A stretch of 10,384 bases of DNA from a virus. This document shows, piece after piece, positions 2,392 through 10,384 of this stretch. Under the pieces are notes generated by a model. The model did not search any database and had not been told where the DNA came from. It worked only from the letters and a program-made list of their open reading frames with translations. Position 1 is the first letter of the stretch. Every line of letters begins with the position of its first letter. The position numbers and the translations under genes were made by a program. The stretch lies in the UHGV virus genome UHGV-0374782; one strand, given 5' to 3'.

Positions 2392-2945
2392 CTAATATTT
2401 ACCGGCGGGGATTTTTTTGTATAAGGTCGATATCCCAACATCATAAATAATCGCCACACGCCGCCGTGATTCTCCTGCCGCTAACAATCTTTCTGCCTGC
2501 GCCCATTGCTCCGGGGTTAATTTTGGTTTTCTGCCGCCGATCCTGCCCTCTGCACGCGCCGCAGACAATCCCGCCCTGGTGCGTTCGACAATCAACTCTC
2601 GCTCCATTTCAGCCAGTGCGCCCATGACGTGAAAGAAAAAACGCCCCATTGGCGAAGACGTATCTATGCTGTCAGTCAGGCTGCGAAAGTTAATCTCCCT
2701 TTCCCGCAGTTCCTCCACTAAAACGACAAGATGCCGCATGCTGCGACCGAGGCGATCCAGTTCCAGACCACAAGAGTATCGCCCTCTGACAAGGTTCGGA
2801 GCAGCCTTTTAAGCCCTGGTCTGTCTGATGTTTTACCGCTGATTTTGTCTTCAAAAATAAGCTCACATCCTGCGCACTCCAGTGCATTTCGCTGTAATGC
2901 GGTGTTCTGGTCATTTGTTGATACACGCACATAGCCGATAAGCAT
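2392..2945 (-). pseudogene. pin: Serine DNA invertase (Hin/Gin/Cin/Pin family), interrupted by a 1-nt frameshift
   Basis: Two adjacent minus-strand ORFs (2718..2945 and 2392..2739) together cover a full-length invertase. The N-terminal part has MLIGYVRVSTNDQNT...GDTLVVW with the catalytic Ser in VRVS. The C-terminal part has SLTDSIDTSSPMGRFFFHVMGALAEMERELIVERT and a C-terminal HTH. The frames rejoin if one nucleotide is restored in the sense sequence GTGGTCTGGAA-CTGGATCGCCTCGGTCGC (plus coords about 2760..2765), which would read W-K-L-D-R-L-G-R as in intact family members. The symbol is a family-level assignment. Confidence 0.85.
2846..2926. promoter_or_regulatory. Putative Fis-dependent recombinational enhancer inside the 5' coding region of the invertase gene
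   Basis: In hin, gin and cin the enhancer lies within the first ~100 bp of the invertase ORF, over codons for ...STxDQNxxLQRNAL.... The equivalent codons here (VSTNDQNTALQRNALECAGCE) map to about 2846..2926. This is positional inference only; individual Fis sites were not resolved. Confidence 0.3.
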
Positions 2946-3550: not shown

Positions 3551-4155
3551 TGTATAACGCTATCTTAAATAATAAATTTATTGCCACAAAGGCAGGAGAG
3601 GTTACCGTTTATAACTATGACAGTGAGACACGGGAGTATATTTCTGCATCAATTGAATATCTTGCTGTGGGTGTCGGTATCCCCGCATATTCCTGTTTAG
3701 ATGCTCCTGGCACACATAAGGCTGGTTATGCAATCTGCCGTTCTGCAGATTTTAACTCATGGGAATATGTGCCAGACCATCGCGGTGAAATCGTCTTTAG
3801 CACCGAAACAGGAGAATCAAAAGAAATCACAGCTCCGGGTGATTACCCTGATAATACAACCACTATCGCCCCGTTAACACCATACGATAAATGGGATGGT
3901 GAGAAATGGGTGACGGATACCGATGCACAGCATAGCGCCGCAGTAGATGCAGCAGAAGCACAACGCCTGTCGCTGATTGATACTGCAATGGCTTCCATCA
4001 GTCTGATTCAACTGAAATTACAGGCCGGACGGAATCTGACGCAGGCAGAAACCAGCCGACTTAACACGGTGCTGGATTACATTGACGCGGTGACGGCAAC
4101 AGATACCAGCACCGCGCCTGATATTATTTGGCCTGTATTCCCTGAGACTGATTAA
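3547..4155 (+). CDS. Tail fibre assembly protein (Tfa / Mu U'-like chaperone) for the alternative fibre tip
   Basis: 202-aa ORF overlapping the upstream cassette stop by ATGA. The C-terminal motif …LNTVLDYIDAVTATDTSTAPDIIWPVFPE is characteristic of the Tfa/gpG/U chaperone family. Confidence 0.85.
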   Translation: MMYNAILNNKFIATKAGEVTVYNYDSETREYISASIEYLAVGVGIPAYSCLDAPGTHKAGYAICRSADFNSWEYVPDHRGEIVFSTETGESKEITAPGDYPDNTTTIAPLTPYDKWDGEKWVTDTDAQHSAAVDAAEAQRLSLIDTAMASISLIQLKLQAGRNLTQAETSRLNTVLDYIDAVTATDTSTAPDIIWPVFPETD

Positions 4156-4384
4156 CCTCAATTAGTATTGGTTCGCCTTTCTCATTAATTGTTAGCTCCA
4201 TGCCCTGAGGAATTTCTGTCATAGTAAAAAACCAGTTGTCCTCCGGTAATTCAATAGCCCCGGTCACGTCATGAAGACCGGGGATTACTTCAGTCAAAGT
4301 AACTGGATTAAACAGGCGCACAATAAACCCTCCAGGAAAAAGCATTTGATGATGGTCTGCCGTCGTACATCTGGCAGCGGGCAT
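4124..4384 (-). CDS. Hypothetical small ORF downstream of the expressed fibre tip; the start is uncertain (candidate ATGs at 4345, 4222, 4201) and it may not be a gene
   Basis: 86-codon ORF whose 5' end overlaps the fibre gene's 3' end in another frame and whose 3' end overlaps the 3' end of the convergent Tfa gene by 32 nt. No convincing Shine-Dalgarno precedes any internal ATG. It has no Tfa-like C-terminal motif. It occupies the position where Mu or P1 would carry the second chaperone gene. Confidence 0.2.
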   Translation of the reverse strand: MPAARCTTADHHQMLFPGGFIVRLFNPVTLTEVIPGLHDVTGAIELPEDNWFFTMTEIPQGMELTINEKGEPILIEVNQSQGIQAK

Positions 4385-5699
4385 AAAAGCCGGTATTTGT
4401 TAACTGATCATCCACGATCATTGAAACGTGAACATTATTAGGTGTGCTCTCGTAATCCGTTCTTATTCTTTCCGCGATACTGATAAAACGTGAAAGTTTA
4501 GGCAGTGCAATTGGGTAAACAACTTTAGCCAGTCCATTATCATTAGATCCACCGGTTCCAAATACTTCTATTGCACCATCTGACCAGCGTATCCATGCAC
4601 CATTGGCATTAGCTCCTCGCTGAATGACATATCTGGCTTCTCCCAAACCAAGGTATTGGAGAAGGCCTGAAACACTTTTCCCACTGAGGTCGGTCAGTGT
4701 GGCATCCAGTGGTTGTTTACCTGCCAGTGCATTTGTGATTGTCGTGGCGAAGTTAGGGTCATTACCCAATGCGGCCGCCAGTTCATTTAACGTATCCAGT
4801 GCCTCCGGCGACGAGCCGACCAGCCCGGCAACCGCTGCTTTCACAAATGCCGTGGTAGCAATCTGCGTATTATTCACCGTCTGCGCAGCCGTCGGAGCCG
4901 TCGGCGTTCCGGTCAGGGCCGGGCTTGCCAGTGGTGCTTTCAGCGCCAACGCATTGTTAATAGTGGTGCTGAAATTTGGGTCATTGTTGATAGCCACAGC
5001 AATTTCTTTCAGCGTATCCAGCGTTGCCGGTGCTCCGCCGATCAGGGTAAGAATCGCCGCCTGCACAAAAGCAGTACTGGCAATCTGCGTGGTGTTATTC
5101 CCTGCCGGTGCCGTTGGTGTTTTTGGCGTTCCGGTAAGTGACGGGCTTTCCTTCGGTGCATATTGCTTATGCGGATCTGCCGCCGAAAGGTGAGAGTCCA
5201 TCAGCTTAGTTGCATAACTCTTAACCTCAAGCACTGCCACATCAACATACTGACGCGTTGCGAGTACCACAGACGGATCAATCTTCAGGGTAACTGCGTC
5301 CGTGCTCGATACAGTTAGAAGCATCCTGATAACCTGAGTTCGGCCCGATCCCTCATCTGTTGTCGCCTTGTATGTTTCCGGGCAGTTAGCAACAGCAATC
5401 AAATCACCATCAGCATCAAAAAGCCCGATTTCGCGAATCCACCAACCACCGGCAGATTCAGGAATAATTTGTTCTGCAATAATCTGGCTGTCGTTGTTTT
5501 TATCGACTGACAGGGAATTAAGCTGGGCGCGGCGCACCTCGTTAACCAGCTTCGTTTGAGCCTGGTTAGGGGTTGGCGATACACCGCCGCCATCACCTAC
5601 CGCGAGTGAAGTGATATTCAGCTTTTCACCCAGCGCCGCCATGTTTGATAATTTTGCTGCCCCCACATTAGTCAGCAGGGCAAAGTATTTAAGCGCCAT
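4308..5699 (-). CDS. Tail fibre protein (P2 gpH-like); constant region about aa 1-350, variable tip about aa 355-463 lying inside the invertible segment
   Basis: The N-terminus (…AVGDGGG…, …IRMLLTVSS…) resembles P2 gpH / Mu S N-terminal baseplate-attachment domains. The shaft has two about 74-aa repeats (LTGTP…NNTQIA.TAFV…LDTL.E.A.A..NDPNF.TTI.NALA.K). The C-terminal tip (…GAWIRWSDGAIEVFGT…VVYPIALP…TGFYARCQ…FSWRVY…) looks like a complete distal receptor-binding domain, but of a different class from the silent cassette. The start overlaps the upstream gpI-like gene end. Confidence 0.9.
   Translation of the reverse strand: MALKYFALLTNVGAAKLSNMAALGEKLNITSLAVGDGGGVSPTPNQAQTKLVNEVRRAQLNSLSVDKNNDSQIIAEQIIPESAGGWWIREIGLFDADGDLIAVANCPETYKATTDEGSGRTQVIRMLLTVSSTDAVTLKIDPSVVLATRQYVDVAVLEVKSYATKLMDSHLSAADPHKQYAPKESPSLTGTPKTPTAPAGNNTTQIASTAFVQAAILTLIGGAPATLDTLKEIAVAINNDPNFSTTINNALALKAPLASPALTGTPTAPTAAQTVNNTQIATTAFVKAAVAGLVGSSPEALDTLNELAAALGNDPNFATTITNALAGKQPLDATLTDLSGKSVSGLLQYLGLGEARYVIQRGANANGAWIRWSDGAIEVFGTGGSNDNGLAKVVYPIALPKLSRFISIAERIRTDYESTPNNVHVSMIVDDQLTNTGFYARCQMYDGRPSSNAFSWRVYCAPV
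4638..4663. other. Invertase crossover site (gix/pix/hix-like), right boundary of the invertible segment
   Basis: Plus strand TTCTCCCAAACCAAGGTATTGGAGAA; its reverse complement is TTCTCCAATACC-TT-GGTTTGGGAGAA. It shares 23 of 27 positions with the 3000..3025 site and the same central TT dinucleotide. Confidence 0.8.
4700..5145. repeat. Intragenic tandem direct repeat, two units with a 222-bp period, encoding the tail-fibre shaft repeats
   Basis: Anchors repeat at a 222-bp offset: gggtcatt at 4756 and 4978, cgtatccag at 4791 and 5013, gcaatctgcgt at 4858 and 5080. The units are imperfect (very roughly 70% identical by eye). Boundaries are approximate. Confidence 0.6.
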
Positions 5700-6303
5700 T
5701 TGTTACCTCTAACGTATCAATAATATGTATTGCTCCCCCAGGGAAATAACCGCCGCTTACTTCCACTGCTTCCGGCATATAGGGGTAAATTGTCATCACG
5801 TCGCCGCCATAGCACCCGGCGTGAGCGTAAAGCTTTCCCTCCACCTGCAAATTAATGGCAAGGCCGGTAAGGTGACGTGAGCACGGTTTTGCATCAGCGA
5901 TCAGGCGCTCAAGCTCACGATAGGTCTCCTCAGTAATTCCTGATTCAGAAACACCGATTTCAAGCTGAAATGTCCCTGGCTCACCGCCGGTCTGCCACCA
6001 CTCGATCACCTTTATCAGGAAGCCGAACGGCTCCACTACATGGCGTAGCGCCGCGATGGTTCCCTTCTGACGATGTACCACCCAGGCTGATTTGATCACC
6101 TGGCGTTTCGTTTGCTCTGACCAGTTCTTATCCCAGCGATCAACAGACAGCGCCCACGCCAGATAAGGCAGGAGGGCAACCGGGCATTCATCGGGATTCC
6201 ACAGCTTGCGCAAATCTACCGGAATATCTGTTATGCGCTGCGTACCCGCCTCTGCACGACGCATGAAATCGCTGGCTGAAGGAGGTAACAGACTTTTATT
6301 CAT
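5689..6303 (-). CDS. Baseplate / tail protein I (P2 gpI-like)
   Basis: Contains …LWNPDECPVALLPYLAWALSVDRWD…HRQKGTIAALRHVVEPFGFLIKVIEWW…ERLIADAKPCSRHL…, recalled similarity to P2 gpI. The preferred start is the ATG at 6303 (MNKSLLPP…), preceded by GAGGGGGA and overlapping the J stop in ATGAATAA. The longest ORF would extend to 6357, which would overlap the J-like gene by 60 nt and is less likely. Confidence 0.85.
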   Translation of the reverse strand: MNKSLLPPSASDFMRRAEAGTQRITDIPVDLRKLWNPDECPVALLPYLAWALSVDRWDKNWSEQTKRQVIKSAWVVHRQKGTIAALRHVVEPFGFLIKVIEWWQTGGEPGTFQLEIGVSESGITEETYRELERLIADAKPCSRHLTGLAINLQVEGKLYAHAGCYGGDVMTIYPYMPEAVEVSGGYFPGGAIHIIDTLEVTNGA

Positions 6304-7192
6304 CTGTTCCCCCTCTGGTGATTGTGACGGAGGTACAGCGCGCCGCCTGGGTATCACTGATCACCACATTGTTGATCGGCGACTGAACCTCCACGCGCTG
6401 CACACCCTGGACGTGTAACGCTGCCATGATTGCTGACAACGCAACATCACGACCAATACCTCCCTGCCCTGCCAGCCAGGATTGCAACGCCTTTTCAGCC
6501 GCATCAGCGATGGGCTCAGATTCCGGCCCCGGATAAAAGTAAAGGGTGGCGCTAATGTCGTAGTTAATGATCTCCGCGCTCTGTACGGTCAACCGGTCGC
6601 CAACCGGGCGCACGCTCTCATCCGATAACGCCGCGTTTACGGTGGTGATTAGCTCTGCTGAAGCCGTACCATCACCTTCTGAGGACAGTATCGATACAAT
6701 AACCTCGGCAGGTGCCGGGCTTGACGCTTTGGCGTCTGCCACCTTGCCAGAAGCGCTTTTTGCAAAATACTCATAAGCGGCGGTTGGCCCGGCAACACTC
6801 AGCCCTTCAAATGCCGCCTGAGCGCGCAAACGTAACTTTGAATCGCTTTCCATTACGGCACCTGTTGTATCGGTCGCCTCAGTAATGGTTAGTCTTTTGG
6901 TGTTGTTATTCGCCGCCAGGTTATCCAGATCCGTTGATGTGGCATGGCTTAACATGCACGCAGCAGCACCGTCATTTATGGCCTGCCGTAACATTAATTC
7001 ACGGTATGCCACCACCTGAGCGATCACATTTAGTGGCTCTGATTCAAGTTCCATCGCTGCCGCAATCGCGCTTTGCTTCTCTTTTGGGTAGGCCGAAATC
7101 ATCATCGCTTTCACTTCGCTCAAAATAACTTCGTAATCCAGCGTGGCGATCACTTCCGGTGGTGGCAGTTCCGATAAATCAATAGTTGCCAT
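6296..7192 (-). CDS. Baseplate assembly protein J (P2 gpJ-like)
   Basis: 298 aa with …LESEPL…YREL…RQ…, …RLTIT…, …AFEGLSVAG…Y…, …VRPV.DRLTVQSA…, …LY.YPGPESEPI…, …GRD..LSAI.AALHV.GVQRVE… matching the P2 gpJ pattern. It sits between the W-like and I-like genes as in P2. Confidence 0.9.
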   Translation of the reverse strand: MATIDLSELPPPEVIATLDYEVILSEVKAMMISAYPKEKQSAIAAAMELESEPLNVIAQVVAYRELMLRQAINDGAAACMLSHATSTDLDNLAANNNTKRLTITEATDTTGAVMESDSKLRLRAQAAFEGLSVAGPTAAYEYFAKSASGKVADAKASSPAPAEVIVSILSSEGDGTASAELITTVNAALSDESVRPVGDRLTVQSAEIINYDISATLYFYPGPESEPIADAAEKALQSWLAGQGGIGRDVALSAIMAALHVQGVQRVEVQSPINNVVISDTQAARCTSVTITRGGTDE

Positions 7193-7547
7193 TGTCCTGT
7201 TCCTTCAAAGTCACAGAGCCTGTCGCCGCCTGCATGGTGGTAGTGATCAGCCCGCTAAGTCCCACTGTCACCGCGCCGGACTCTGAAAAATTCACATCCA
7301 CCTGATTTAAAGCGATGCGCGGCTCCCACTGCGTTAAAGCAATCACCGTGGCGCTCATCAGTTGCAATCGTGTCGTTTCGTTCTGAGGCTCATCCAGCAA
7401 GTCAGGTAATAAACTGCCATACGTGCGGCGCATCACCCGCGACCCCAGCGGTGTTAACAGGACATCTTTCACCGACTGCCAGAGGTGATCACTGTCGGAA
7501 AGCGTTCCTGTTCCGGCCTGATTCATGCCCGTATATTTCGCTGTCAT
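7179..7547 (-). CDS. Baseplate assembly protein W (P2 gpW / gp25-like)
   Basis: 122 aa starting MTAKYTGMN… with …PLGSRVMRR.YGSLL…L.D.PQ…, recalled similarity to P2 gpW. ATGA overlap with the V stop. Confidence 0.85.
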   Translation of the reverse strand: MTAKYTGMNQAGTGTLSDSDHLWQSVKDVLLTPLGSRVMRRTYGSLLPDLLDEPQNETTRLQLMSATVIALTQWEPRIALNQVDVNFSESGAVTVGLSGLITTTMQAATGSVTLKEQDNGNY

Positions 7548-8125
7548 TGCGTCCCCTTCGTCCAGCTACCACCAGGTTGAACAGCGCCATGAGTATGTTC
7601 ATCAACCCGTACACCGTTTGAGGTAAGCGCGCCGCCGGTGTGTGTGACGCCGCCAGTCATCTTCCCACCCTCAGTGAAATCAAAGGTTTTTGCCTTCAGA
7701 TGGCTGGTACACTCCACCACCGCTGTATCAAGCGTGATTTTTGTCTCGGCCTGAATCGTTGCCGTTTTCATGCCGCTTGCGGTCAACGCGCTAACCTCTG
7801 CGTCATATTCGAATCTGGCCCCGTCAGGCGCTGTAACCACCATCTGTTTCAGGCTGGCAGAGGGGGCGTCATTTTCATTGCTGTACAGACTCCCCAGCAA
7901 AACCGCCGTTTCCGGGTTGCCACCGATACAGCCCAATAACACCTGCTCACCCCGCGACGGCGGACACCAAATCTTAAAATCACCGGCACGGCCTGTTTTC
8001 CAGCGAAGCCAGGTTGTTTTCAGTTCGCCGCTCTGTACGCGCACGCTTTTACCGTCTTCCGATATTTCCGCGACAATACCCACACGCAGCACGTTTTCCA
8101 GGAGTCTCATCAGTTCGGCGCTCAT
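7544..8125 (-). CDS. Baseplate spike/hub protein V (P2 gpV-like)
   Basis: 193 aa with an N-terminal …GIV.E…RV..G….T.WL.W…RAG… region and a C-terminal …THTGG.L.SNG…H.H… motif, as in P2 gpV. ATGA overlap with the S stop. Confidence 0.85.
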   Translation of the reverse strand: MSAELMRLLENVLRVGIVAEISEDGKSVRVQSGELKTTWLRWKTGRAGDFKIWCPPSRGEQVLLGCIGGNPETAVLLGSLYSNENDAPSASLKQMVVTAPDGARFEYDAEVSALTASGMKTATIQAETKITLDTAVVECTSHLKAKTFDFTEGGKMTGGVTHTGGALTSNGVRVDEHTHGAVQPGGSWTKGTQ

Positions 8126-8760
8126 TTCCCCGCACTCCCCAGACTGTTGATCACTGCACTACGGATCAGTGCCTCATCCGCTTTGGAAATTCCCAGCAAT
8201 ACGCGGGGGGCATATTTGGCGAAAGCACCGGGCCCAATCTGCTCACGTAAACCGTCCTGATGAATACGTGCAATACGCGCCGCCATACCACTAAAACCAA
8301 CCTCAGCACCTTCAGATGTCGCTTTCATCTTCATAAAGCGGGATGTGCGCAGCTTCACGAACATTGGCGCTTTGACGGTTCTGGGCGTCTGACCCGCCCG
8401 TGTATTAATCTCGGTATAGCGTTCAATGTCAGCCCGATAAAACGTGCGCACTTCATTCCTGTCTTCATCAAATCCGGTGATGGTTCGCCCGTACTTACCG
8501 CGTCCGCTGTGCCAGTTTTTCAGTCGTCGCAACTGACCTTCCCAGATGAAGGAGATCCCCTGCTGCGTGCGTAATTTTTTACGGCGTCGCGCCGGGTACT
8601 GGCTCCCGTCCGGATTACGTTGTGCGCGTATACGCTGCTGTTGGCTGATGCGCAGCATCTTCCCAACTTCACGCGCCGTCCTGGCTCGCCCGGTAGGTGA
8701 CACCCCCGCCAGGATGTCAGAGAAATACTGATCCAGTGTGTGAATACCTTCGGCACTCAT
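8122..8760 (-). CDS. Phage virion morphogenesis / tail completion protein S-like
   Basis: 212-aa basic protein in the position of P2 gpS, between R and V, with ATGA overlaps on both sides. The family call is from position and general resemblance to virion-morphogenesis (P2 S / Mu G) proteins. It is longer than P2 gpS (150 aa). Confidence 0.7.
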   Translation of the reverse strand: MSAEGIHTLDQYFSDILAGVSPTGRARTAREVGKMLRISQQQRIRAQRNPDGSQYPARRRKKLRTQQGISFIWEGQLRRLKNWHSGRGKYGRTITGFDEDRNEVRTFYRADIERYTEINTRAGQTPRTVKAPMFVKLRTSRFMKMKATSEGAEVGFSGMAARIARIHQDGLREQIGPGAFAKYAPRVLLGISKADEALIRSAVINSLGSAGK

Positions 8761-9212
8761 AAGGGCGCACTCCAGGTAACGTCCTCAATAATTCCGCTCC
8801 ATTCCGGCTGTATACGTGGGCGAGGCTCTGGCTTGTGATCTGCCTTTAACGTGCCATCGTCATTGCGCGTTACGATCACACGCTCGCTGATGGGTAATTC
8901 GAAAAATAAATCCGCAGTGTCGTCGCTGTTGATCGCCGTGGTGAATTTAATCTCTTTGTTTTTTTCAGGATTCAGCAACAGTTGCGGTTGCTCCTGCCAC
9001 AGCCAGGCCATCAACGGAAGGGTAAAATCATCCAGATCACCGGCAAAATTCATCACAAACAGACACAGCGTATAGGCATAAACAAAATCAGCCGTTTCGC
9101 CGGTCGTCTCCACATGCCCGGACTCAATGAACACACTGAAGGCTTCAGGGTTTGCCTTGCACCACTGGTTCGAACGGGTGAGCGCATCGCGCAGGGAGTT
9201 AATTTTCAGCAT
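8757..9212 (-). CDS. Tail completion protein R (P2 gpR-like)
   Basis: 151 aa starting MLKINSLRDALT…, recalled N-terminal similarity to P2 gpR (MLKPDSLRRALT…). It lies immediately downstream of the lysis genes and upstream of S, as in P2. Confidence 0.8.
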   Translation of the reverse strand: MLKINSLRDALTRSNQWCKANPEAFSVFIESGHVETTGETADFVYAYTLCLFVMNFAGDLDDFTLPLMAWLWQEQPQLLLNPEKNKEIKFTTAINSDDTADLFFELPISERVIVTRNDDGTLKADHKPEPRPRIQPEWSGIIEDVTWSAPL

Positions 9213-9540
9213 GTTGCTTAACCTCTTTACCTTGCTGGCGCGCCAGGCGCTTCAGATTCAACTCACTGATCGCACGCTTGTCCGCGTTGCAGCTATCAAG
9301 CGCGTCATGTAACCGATCGGCGTAAATCGCGATTCCACCCCACGTGACCGGCGTTTTCAGTTCCGGTTCCGGGGTTTCATTAGTCAGGCTTTGCGGTACT
9401 GGTTCGTGAATCAGCCGGGTTTGCACTTTTATCTTTTCTGAGCAACCCATTACTGACAGCAACAGGCACAACAGCACCGGCACATTTATCAGTACGCATC
9501 GCCGTGGACATATTTTCACGCCTGGCTTCACCTTCACCAT
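9199..9540 (-). CDS. o-spanin (LysC/Rz1-like outer-membrane lipoprotein), overlapping the i-spanin gene in another frame
   Basis: Start ATG at 9540 preceded by AGGAG. Signal peptide MVKVKPGVKICPRRCVLINVPVLLCLLLSVMG followed by Cys (lipobox-like VMGC). The mature part is Pro-rich with a C-terminal Cys. The gene begins inside the i-spanin gene and runs past its end into the start of R, the classic P2 lysB/lysC overlapped architecture. Confidence 0.6.
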   Translation of the reverse strand: MVKVKPGVKICPRRCVLINVPVLLCLLLSVMGCSEKIKVQTRLIHEPVPQSLTNETPEPELKTPVTWGGIAIYADRLHDALDSCNADKRAISELNLKRLARQQGKEVKQHAEN

Positions 9541-9751
9541 TTCGCTCCTGTTCCGCTTTTCTGACATCTGCAAGCACCGCTTGCGCATCAGCCGTTAGCC
9601 CGCGCATTTCTGCGATCACTGCTTCACTTTCATCAAACATGCGCTGCAATTTTTCTTCGTTATCGTCTGCAATGGCGCCTGTGTATCCCCGGTAATAACC
9701 GGATGCATAACCACCAATGCTGATGACGAGTAACCACAAAAAAGTTTTCAC
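9380..9751 (-). CDS. i-spanin (LysB/Rz-like inner-membrane protein)
   Basis: 123 aa with an N-terminal transmembrane segment (FLWLLVISIGGYASGYY) then a charged, helical periplasmic domain. Apparent GTG start at 9751 with GGAGG 5 nt upstream; GTGA overlap with the endolysin stop. Confidence 0.6.
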   Translation of the reverse strand: MKTFLWLLVISIGGYASGYYRGYTGAIADDNEEKLQRMFDESEAVIAEMRGLTADAQAVLADVRKAEQERNGEGEARRENMSTAMRTDKCAGAVVPVAVSNGLLRKDKSANPADSRTSTAKPD

Positions 9752-10290
9752 CTGGCCTCCAGATCTCGCTTACACCACACCTGGAAATCAGTACGTCGAT
9801 TTACCAGGCCCTGCGACCGCTTACCGGCGCTGTTCACAAAATCGGTTAACCGGTCACACACGCCGCTCCAGTTGTGCGCCTGGGCGTTTTTCCAGATCGT
9901 GGTACGCTGCTTGCGTTTGTTCTTATCCGTGAACCACATCAGCCCCGAACACCCCACATTCAGCCCGGCATCAGCCATCGCCTCAAATACGGATTGCGGC
10001 ATCGCCTTACCATTGAAGTTCTGGTTTATGCAGTTCTCGGAATGCTGCATGTCATTTACCCAGCGGCGGGCCACCTCTGCATTGCTGTACTCGCGCTTCT
10101 GCACGTTGCCGGTTGAACCAATCCCCACGGTCAACACCCCGGCGGTACAGTAGTAAGGCGTGTTACGGCAATCTTCCCAGGACGCTATTTTTTGCTGTGC
10201 TTCAGGCGACGTCCGCAACACATCGGGCGACATCGACACCCCCAGGGCGACAATCAGCGCGACTGAGCAACGTTTAATAACCGCCTTCAT
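9748..10290 (-). CDS. SAR endolysin, GH24 lysozyme of the P1 Lyz type
   Basis: Preferred start ATG at 10290 (GGGGA upstream); the track's 10296 start is a TTG. The N-terminus has a weakly hydrophobic signal-anchor-release-like segment containing a Cys (KRCSVALIVALGVSM). The catalytic region is SWEDCRNTPYYCTAGVLTVGIGSTG: Glu, then Cys in the position of the T4 lysozyme catalytic Asp, then Thr, with an extra caging Cys two residues after the Glu. This matches the P1 Lyz arrangement. Confidence 0.85.
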   Translation of the reverse strand: MKAVIKRCSVALIVALGVSMSPDVLRTSPEAQQKIASWEDCRNTPYYCTAGVLTVGIGSTGNVQKREYSNAEVARRWVNDMQHSENCINQNFNGKAMPQSVFEAMADAGLNVGCSGLMWFTDKNKRKQRTTIWKNAQAHNWSGVCDRLTDFVNSAGKRSQGLVNRRTDFQVWCKRDLEAR

Positions 10291-10384
10291 CGTCAATCCC
10301 CGCTTTGAGTTGTGTTAACTCCTGCCGCTCAACGGCAGTCAGATCCCGGCGCGCTGCCAGCGTCAGAATCTGCTCAATCAGGGC
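10274..10384 (-). CDS. 3' end (36 codons) of a gene running off the window edge; by position a probable holin or pinholin
   Basis: Open frame from the window end to TAA at 10276..10274 (…ALIEQILTLAARRDLTAVERQELTQLKAGIDDEGGY*), overlapping the endolysin start. The charged, hydrophilic C-terminus and the position upstream of the endolysin suggest a holin. The protein family cannot be confirmed from 36 residues. Confidence 0.3.
   Translation of the reverse strand, partial: ALIEQILTLAARRDLTAVERQELTQLKAGIDDEGGY

Follow-up and report, generated by a model that had tools for sequence, protein, structure and literature searches.

Which lysis system does a P2-family prophage carry when the genes between its X gene and its tail completion genes R and S are not those of P2, and how would the endolysin of such a system be held inactive until it is needed? 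The question is raised by the virus genome UHGV-0374782, a stretch of 10,384 nucleotides that we refer to throughout as the window, in which a lysozyme gene on the minus strand is flanked by a small membrane protein gene that runs beyond the window edge and by an overlapping pair of spanin genes. Our analysis indicates that this is the lysis cassette of a P2-family prophage, and that its endolysin is probably a disulfide-caged signal-anchor-release (SAR) muramidase of the P1 Lyz type. The endolysin gene and the two parts of it on which this reading turns are as follows.

9748..10290, minus strand: endolysin of 180 amino acids, a GH24 muramidase (T4-lysozyme fold) of the P1 Lyz type by Pfam, PHROG, Protein Data Bank (PDB) and AlphaFold2/Foldseek matches
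10225..10269, minus strand: endolysin residues 8-22, CSVALIVALGVSMSP, a putative SAR segment or signal anchor of 15 uncharged residues containing Cys8
10129..10176, minus strand: active-site stretch E39-D-C41-RNTPYY-C48-TAGVL-T54, from direct reading and from its match to P1 Lyz and HP1 Lys

The open reading frame begins with an ATG at 10290 that is preceded by GGGGA, and ends with the TGA stop at 9750-9748. Its product starts MKAVIKRCSVALIVALGVSMSPDVLRTSPEAQQKIASWEDCRNTPYYCTAGVLTVGIGSTG, where a basic n-region (M-K-A-V-I-K-R) leads into the hydrophobic stretch. In the active-site motif, in which a tryptophan immediately precedes E39, column matches identify E39 as the catalytic glutamate, C41 as the caging cysteine, C48 as the catalytic cysteine that replaces aspartate, and T54 as the catalytic threonine; the spacing of the E, C and T residues (+9 and +6) is that of E11, D20 and T26 in the alignment with T4 lysozyme. 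The reading frame, its coordinates, the motif and the three cysteines C8, C41 and C48 are thus as an earlier note on this DNA, made from the sequence alone, had described them. A lipoprotein reading of Cys8 was also considered and is ruled out on direct reading, there being no lipobox ahead of this residue.

Profile and pairwise searches place the protein in a well-defined family. It matches Pfam PF00959 with E=9e-21 (75 bits against a cut-off of 22.3) and PHROG 7 with E=3e-46, and a phmmer search of the PDB returns P1 Lyz (1XJT) as the best solved relative by sequence (E=3.8e-29), with C8, E39, C41, C48 and T54 opposite P1 Lyz C13, E42, C44, C51 and T57. By BLASTP it is 35% identical to P1 Lyz (E=1.5e-32), 39% to HP1 Lys and 27% to Mu gp22. 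For these and later comparisons the P1 Lyz, Mu gp22 and gp25, P2 and HP1 sequences were taken from records. When 89 full-length homologues of the endolysin were aligned with P1 Lyz using MAFFT, all seven of its cysteines (8, 41, 48, 87, 114, 145 and 173) fell in the same columns as P1 Lyz cysteines 13, 44, 51, 91, 118, 150 and 178, so that C8 stands opposite C13 in the HMMER and MAFFT alignments alike. C41 is invariant in the family and aligns with P1 Lyz C44, C48 aligns with C51, and E39 and T54, which align with T4 E11 and T26 and with P1 E42 and T57, are invariant in 88-89 of the 89 homologues. On these matches the endolysin is a GH24 homologue whose resemblance to P1 Lyz is not due to chance. 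The assignment to the P1 Lyz type that had been made from the motif is therefore borne out by the positional conservation of all seven cysteines and by the structural model described below, and the alignment with P1 Lyz that had been proposed as a check places C8, C41 and C48 at Cys13, Cys44 and Cys51.

If Cys8 has a function that depends on the catalytic cysteine, the two should be kept or lost together. The N-terminal cysteine, C41 and C48 occur together in 78 of 90 homologues, and a further 11 carry Y8, C41, D48 and a new cysteine at position 57 in place of isoleucine. In a neighbour-joining tree built from residues 60-173 only, these 11 sequences form a single clade nested inside the Cys-type sequences; Cys8 is lost only jointly with the catalytic cysteine, which is the pattern expected if C8 serves only a caged catalytic cysteine, and a joint change of the two is also the prediction of the isomerisation model. 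By its residues and its place in the tree the clade is a caged-cysteine enzyme that has turned Asp-type within the same cassette, the Asp-type proteins occupying the same P2-like cassette beside the same holin family. Its members (P0018, P0019, P0022, P0023, P0026-28, P0032, P0043, P0047 and P0048; locus L008:3001-3543) are 62-72% identical to the window endolysin and contain the motif TVGCGSTG, with a cysteine like that of R21 and Mu gp22. The paired Cys-type and Asp-type homologues offer a control found in nature with which the disulfide-caging model could be examined outside P1.

A structural model leads to the same comparison. An AlphaFold2 model of the endolysin, built on 67 homologues, has a predicted local distance difference test score (pLDDT) of 94, and residues 10-20 are helical in it with a pLDDT of about 96. 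Foldseek aligns the model with 1XJT, deposited as the 'active form of P1 phage endolysin Lyz', at template modelling (TM) scores of 0.89/0.90 and a root-mean-square deviation of 1.6 A over 174 columns, whereas its TM score against 1XJU, the 'secreted inactive form' of P1 Lyz, is 0.58; the lysozymes of R21, P22 and T4 are matched as well. Because the N-terminal helix packs into the enzyme body as in active P1 Lyz, and the TM scores fit the active and not the inactive form, the N-terminal segment is modelled as part of the mature globular fold, as it is in released P1 Lyz.

As Xu and colleagues reportedly found in 2005, P1 Lyz is caged by a C44-C51 disulfide and is activated by isomerisation through C13. 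A scheme of the same kind can be proposed for the window endolysin, its sequence anatomy being read directly and its steps by homology. The basic N-terminus and the 15-residue hydrophobic segment would direct Sec-dependent export and would remain uncleaved as a weak signal anchor, by which the enzyme would be tethered to the inner membrane on its periplasmic side. As long as it is tethered, a disulfide between Cys41 and the catalytic Cys48 would keep it off, and Cys8 would be inaccessible at the end of the membrane segment nearest the cytoplasm. The 99-residue partner, a class II two-helix holin and most likely a pinholin, would accumulate, trigger and depolarise the membrane, upon which the anchor would exit the bilayer and pack onto the enzyme body. 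Cys8 could then attack the C41-C48 bond to give C8-C41, freeing Cys48 for catalysis with Glu39 and Thr54. Once the murein has been degraded, the overlapped LysB/LysC-type spanin pair would disrupt the outer membrane.

The identity of the partner bears directly on this scheme, and only the 3' part of its gene lies in the window.

10274..10384, minus strand: holin or pinholin candidate, 3' end (last 36 codons and stop); the full gene, which extends beyond the window edge, was taken from an identical prophage

The gene ends, as had been stated, at 10274, with a TAA at 10276-10274, and overlaps the endolysin start by 17 nucleotides. The sequence upstream of 10384, which had been suggested as the means of classifying the holin, was obtained from an identical E. 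coli prophage, where the gene has 99 codons (L001:19812-20111) and encodes MELNSFHRLYDWITWITSSISVGVGVMTWNEKLGMAGLMLGVLSGWRAWVHRARVERAQEKRNALIEQILTLAARRDLTAVERQELTQLKAGIDDEGGY. Its first transmembrane domain (TMD1, W12-W29) is rich in Ser, Thr and Gly, with a summed delta-G of +3.6 and 44% Gly/Ala/Ser/Thr, the corresponding values for S21 TMD1 being +6.4 and 63%. A three-residue loop leads to the second helix, L33-V50, which contains a GxxxG-type pattern (G37xxxG41xxxG45), and this is followed by a charged tail of about 50 residues that begins HRARVERAQEKR. AlphaFold2 predicts a helical hairpin (H4-26 and H29-75) and then a further helix. By prediction the partner thus has the layout of a pinholin, with two TMDs, a weakly hydrophobic SAR-like TMD1 and a basic C-terminus that would be cytoplasmic.

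No Pfam or NCBIfam family covers the partner. It matches PHROG 1350, 'holin' (E=1e-15), and PHROG 20 (E=1e-4), and both are shared with HP1 Hol, which matches PHROG 20 at 9e-10 and PHROG 1350 at 5e-6. The family is small: searched exhaustively with HMMER, 1.84 billion representative proteins yielded only 10 representative clusters of it, and in the loci examined its members always adjoin exported GH24 endolysins. An hhalign comparison of this family with HP1 Hol gave a marginal match (69% probability, E=4e-5) over 56 columns that span both helices and the start of the tail, while hhalign found no relation of the family to P1 LydD (0.4%), S21 (18.6%), P2 Y (14.6%) or Mu gp25 (0.3%). We conclude that the partner is probably a remote homologue of the HP1 pinholin. 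The HP1 hol-lys pair has been characterised experimentally as a pinholin with a SAR endolysin, and HP1 Hol kills without release of beta-galactosidase and is needed for phage release (PMC7312051). In neither the partner sequence nor the cassette was a dual-start motif or a lysA gene found, respectively, and no separate antiholin is therefore apparent.

Further observations concern this family. Three residues of the sequence GVGVMT, where the chain turns from the first helix into the second, do not vary within it (alignments A1 and A3): G25, M27 and T28. A weak hhalign match sets the partner motif M27-T-x-x-E-K against the N-terminal residues of P2 Y (MTAEEK). Were translation to begin internally at M27, the product would have one TMD; no clear Shine-Dalgarno sequence was found there. 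In P0095, from a Joint Genome Institute (JGI) metagenome, the C-terminal two-thirds of a family holin is fused in frame to the endolysin (…LCNRMSRK-MKQLIKKC…), a fusion that may be a genuine read-through variant or may have arisen as an error of sequencing or gene calling.

We favour a pinholin as the identity of the partner, with moderate confidence. The guess to this effect in the earlier note is supported by the two weakly hydrophobic helices and by the probable remote homology to the HP1 protein. Possible, if distinctly less probable, is that the partner only sets the timing or is a class II holin of the canonical large-hole kind, the endolysin being as described above. Hole size cannot be read from a sequence, and the link to the HP1 pinholin, at 69% and 56 columns, is weak. 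P1 Lyz works with both kinds of holin, the canonical LydA and LydC and the pinholin LydD (PMC9025707), and from the presence of a SAR endolysin it thus does not follow that the accompanying holin is a pinholin. The partner has no significant similarity to S21 or P1 LydD, and its charged tail is far longer than that of S21-68. What tells against a canonical holin is that the relative suggested by remote homology and by two common PHROGs is a protein that is lethal without beta-galactosidase release (PMC7312051); in addition, TMD1 of the partner has as few hydrophobic residues as one of SAR type, and the constant association of the family with exported GH24 endolysins points the same way.

Retention of the N-terminus is where the case for the proposed mechanism is weakest. 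The uncharged stretch of the endolysin (C8-P22) has 15 residues, against 24 in P1 Lyz and R21, and hydropathy, whether as Hessa-scale values or as the length of the uncharged run, does not separate a SAR segment from a Sec signal in this case. With a hydrophobic core of only 13-15 residues behind a basic n-region, and Hessa-scale values that coincide in part with those of the signal peptides of OmpA, MalE and PhoA, the segment could be an ordinary cleaved Sec signal. The enzyme would then be a soluble periplasmic lysozyme without Cys8, kept off through C41-C48 or otherwise and never tethered to the membrane. Small residues also make A-L-G17|V and G17-V-S19|M20 candidate cleavage sites. The only signal-peptidase-like site past the hydrophobic core is [ST]-x-[SA]-Pro22, and wherever members of the close subgroup have such a site its +1 residue is proline. 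Proline at +1 blocks signal peptidase I. Cleavage would also remove Cys8, a residue that is kept in 78 of 90 homologues and lost only with the catalytic cysteine, and it would discard a segment whose conservation (mean pairwise identity 0.55) comes close to that of the mature domain (0.66) and which is modelled within the fold, as in active P1 Lyz.

The experimental precedent is HP1 Lys, whose N-terminus has a similar stretch of 16 residues and is also called a signal peptide by SignalP-type tools. It behaves as a SAR endolysin: HP1 Lys lyses E. coli alone, inhibition of Sec blocks HP1 release from H. influenzae, and its authors classify it as such (PMC7312051). Because Cys8 is both conserved and covarying, the segment is conserved and packs in the predicted fold, the +1 position is proline and HP1 Lys offers a precedent, it is probable, on evidence that is indirect, that the endolysin N-terminus is retained uncleaved, and we regard a cleaved signal peptide as unlikely.

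Basic residues immediately precede the segment in the endolysin (K6 and R7). R21 likewise has R6 and K7 and is not known to need a releasin, the term used for a protein such as Mu gp25. That the partner is itself a releasin-like, membrane-tethered cytoplasmic protein that extracts the SAR domain and forms no hole is very improbable, for although it has the length (99 amino acids) and design of Mu gp25, an N-terminal membrane segment with a long helical cytoplasmic domain, and although such basic residues make Mu gp22 releasin-dependent (PMC9239132), it has no match to DUF2730 (PF10805) even at E<=1, where the control Mu gp25 matches at 2.5e-13, it falls in PHROGs 1350 and 20 and not in PHROG 736 with Mu gp25, and the HP1 pinholin is the better-supported relative; with an hhalign probability of 0.3% to Mu gp25 and no DUF2730, a releasin identity was rejected.

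The Asp-type clade raises a related idea, namely that this lineage shows a natural switch between two modes of SAR-endolysin control, the new mode holding if C41 and C57 form a regulatory disulfide or if the unusually long partner tail is releasin-like or otherwise regulatory. In that case the family would exemplify a way of controlling an endolysin that has so far not been described. We consider it doubtful, and put it forward as a long shot.

The remaining genes of the locus define the kind of cassette to which the endolysin belongs.

9380..9751, minus strand: i-spanin (LysB-like), 123 amino acids with an N-terminal TMD; PHROG 214, Rz-like spanin, E=1.5e-17
9199..9540, minus strand: o-spanin (LysC), 113 amino acids, lipobox LSVMG|C33; PF23793, E=4e-14, and PHROG 456
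8757..9212, minus strand: tail completion protein R; PF06891, E=4e-37, 35% identity to P2 R
8122..8760, minus strand: tail completion/virion morphogenesis protein S; PF05069, E=6e-25, 27% identity to P2 S

The order is X, the 99-residue holin, the lysozyme, the overlapped i- and o-spanin, R and S. The endolysin stop codon and the GTG with which the i-spanin starts share nucleotides (GTGA at 9751-9748), and for this reason no gene fits between the two; there is no other sense-strand open reading frame within 9199-10384, and lysA is absent. The o-spanin probably starts at the ATG at 9540, which has AGGAG 5 nucleotides upstream, and its signal would be MVKVKPGVKICPRRCVLINVPVLLCLLLSVMG|C. It begins inside the i-spanin gene in the +1 frame and extends 181 nucleotides beyond it, an overlapped architecture, and its end at 9199 is in turn overlapped by the start of R at 9212. 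RefSeq places the lysC start at a GTG at window position 9426, downstream of the lipobox cysteine; the other genomes have lysC here, but genome H3 labels this feature 'peptidase'.

By BLASTP against P2, the flanking proteins L, X, R and S are 36%, 55%, 35% and 27% identical to their counterparts, and none of the four lysis proteins matches its P2 counterpart. P2 LysB does match PHROG 214, at a weak 2e-4. The description of the locus in the earlier note as a P2-style cassette without lysA is upheld by its location between X and R/S and by the stop/start overlap, and that of an overlapped LysB/LysC-like spanin pair followed by R and S holds too, the LysC family being common with P2 and LysB a distant relative. 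With holin and endolysin exchanged, lysA absent and the spanins divergent relatives of LysB and LysC, the cassette is, on its gene content, a modular swap; here too our result agrees with what had been suggested, L, X, R and S being homologues of the P2 proteins and the holin and endolysin coming from families other than those of P2 Y and K.

Among 50,697 phage records megablast found nothing that matches the 1.2-kilobase cassette, its relatives there appearing at the protein level only. Of 5426 complete E. coli genomes, 4 carry a chromosomal prophage whose sequence is 100% identical to it. In strain JX21CE33 this prophage sits between yegS and yegQ and has the order portal (cut by IS1), terminase, scaffold, capsid, M, L, X, 99-residue 'hypothetical' protein, lysozyme, DUF2570 protein, lysC, R and S, followed by V, W, J, I, H, an invertible tail-fibre segment, a frameshifted invertase, U-T-E-FII-FI on the opposite strand, D and ogr. 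The host element is a defective, Novemvirus-like E. coli prophage of the P2 family.

Several observations pull against the reading of the locus as a whole. One homologue, P0046, combines C8 with D48, and the cysteine covariation is a single evolutionary event and not a statistic. The structure 1XJT was part of AlphaFold2 training, and the packing of the N-terminal helix in the model may thus be partly remembered. The prophage copies are defective, with IS1 in the portal gene, a frameshifted invertase and, in one copy, a deletion, and for this reason the cassette may not be in use in these hosts.

Other features of the element were recorded alongside the cassette. In the window, a Gin/Hin-type DNA invertase gene beside the tail-fibre segment (2392-2945, minus strand) is split into overlapping reading frames of 115 and 75 amino acids, and is marked 'frameshifted' in RefSeq; the tail-fibre switch is therefore probably frozen in this prophage. 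A reading frame of 65 amino acids (4124-4321, minus strand; L001:26064-26261) lies at the border of the invertible segment, where it overlaps the tail-fibre gene H at its 3' end, and matches PHROG 5400, of unknown function, with E=1e-25. The tail operon FI-FII-E-T-U occupies 19-2312 on the plus strand and H, J, W, V, R and S lie within 4308-10384 on the minus strand, unlike the arrangement in P2; the FI-U operon is also opposite D and ogr (L001:28073-33763 and L013:898-6623, the layout of phage phiT5282H being compared). A rearrangement as the cause of this opposite orientation was ruled out, since phiT5282H has the same layout, and it is a trait of the lineage. In the prophage of E. coli AMSCJX04 a deletion (L002:12634-13327) begins at the end of lysB and reaches into the middle of the invertase gene; lysC, R and S are gone, as are the baseplate genes and tail fibres. 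This strain keeps the replication genes together with an intact portal gene, which JX21CE33 has lost to IS1. Outside the window, after ogr at the end of the prophage, a membrane protein of 98 amino acids with a zinc ribbon and a TM2 domain (L001:35461-35757) is likely a moron.

In practical terms the analysis makes it possible to correct the RefSeq annotation, in which the partner is a 'hypothetical protein' or 'phage tail protein', the endolysin is just a 'lysozyme' and lysC is started after its lipobox. It adds an E. coli member to the P2-family phages in which a holin of pinholin type and an endolysin of P1 Lyz type replace Y, K and lysA. The cassette type is already present in sequenced Peduoviridae and the pairing of holin and SAR endolysin has been noted in the literature. 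The current understanding of phage lysis is unchanged by this finding.

How does the cassette compare with known systems? P1 Lyz, the prototype of the disulfide-caged SAR endolysins, resembles the window protein in its GH24 fold, the E-x-C-x6-C-x5-T motif, the cysteine in place of aspartate and the N-terminal cysteine. It differs in its longer N-terminal uncharged segment, compared with which that of the window endolysin is also poorer in Gly, and in the position of the N-terminal cysteine, Cys8 being the first residue of the segment and P1 Cys13 lying in its middle. The genetic settings differ as well: P1 lyz is followed by lydD and lydE and is unlinked to lydA and lydB, whereas the window gene is part of a compact holin-endolysin-spanin cassette between the P2-type X and R genes. 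SAR endolysins of the R21 and Mu gp22 type share with the window endolysin the GH24 fold and an N-terminal SAR segment, putative in the window protein, and have the canonical aspartate and no caging. The Y8/D48/C57 clade has converged on their Asp-type active site, including the 'TVC-G' cysteine. The window endolysin, unlike R21 and Mu gp22, keeps the cysteine triad, and disulfide isomerisation would therefore be expected in addition to control by refolding.

A system characterised by experiment is that of HP1, a Haemophilus phage of the Peduoviridae (Hpunavirus). HP1 Lys has the same pattern of cysteines and a 16-residue uncharged N-terminus, and HP1 Hol, at 78 amino acids against 99, is shorter than the partner and likewise of class II, with two helices, then a charged helical tail, and without a dual start. 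In both cases the backbone is that of a P2-family phage, hol overlaps lys and an Rz-like gene comes next; the HP1 cassette is placed after the tail-tube gene, and that of the window between X and R.

From the P2 cassette itself (Y, K, lysA, lysB and lysC) the window retains the position between X and R, the overlapped i- and o-spanin genes and a LysC of PF23793 and PHROG 456. P2 Y (PF04550, PHROG 175) and K (transglycosylase-type, PHROG 90) are unrelated to the window holin and endolysin, lysA (PHROG 162) is missing from the window cassette, and P2 LysB is only distantly related to its i-spanin.

The same gene order without lysA is found in phiT5282H (Enterobacter, Novemvirus), ST16-OXA48phi5.4 (Klebsiella, Reipivirus) and 3LV2017 (Klebsiella, Reginaelenavirus), with which the cassettes of Klebsiella KP12 and of the E. 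coli phage Midge are grouped. In sequenced Peduoviridae with the cassette the endolysins are 66-77% identical to that of the window (77% in phiT5282H) and the holins 22-45%, and phiT5282H shares the prophage layout of JX21CE33, including the opposite-strand FI-U operon. The exact cassette sequence occurs only in the four E. coli chromosomes, and in these Peduoviridae relatives the resemblance is at the protein level and caging is a prediction from sequence. A P1 Lyz-like SAR endolysin in a P2-like cassette was described in 2023 for Klebsiella KP12 (PMC9902359), and a class II holin with a SAR endolysin was annotated in a 2025 announcement of the P2-like coliphage Midge (PMC12697156).

The module extends beyond this family of phages. 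In a lambdoid prophage of Pasteurella multocida (L010:2708-3827) an endolysin of the same family, 37-38% identical to that of the window and with the cysteine triad kept, lies downstream of the antiterminator Q together with a DUF2570 i-spanin. It is preceded by a protein of 98 amino acids of analogous design, with two weak TMDs, a long charged tail and a match to PHROG 20. The module is therefore common to P2-like and lambdoid backbones, and the comparison of these loci shows a predicted holin-endolysin pair that moves between them as a unit.

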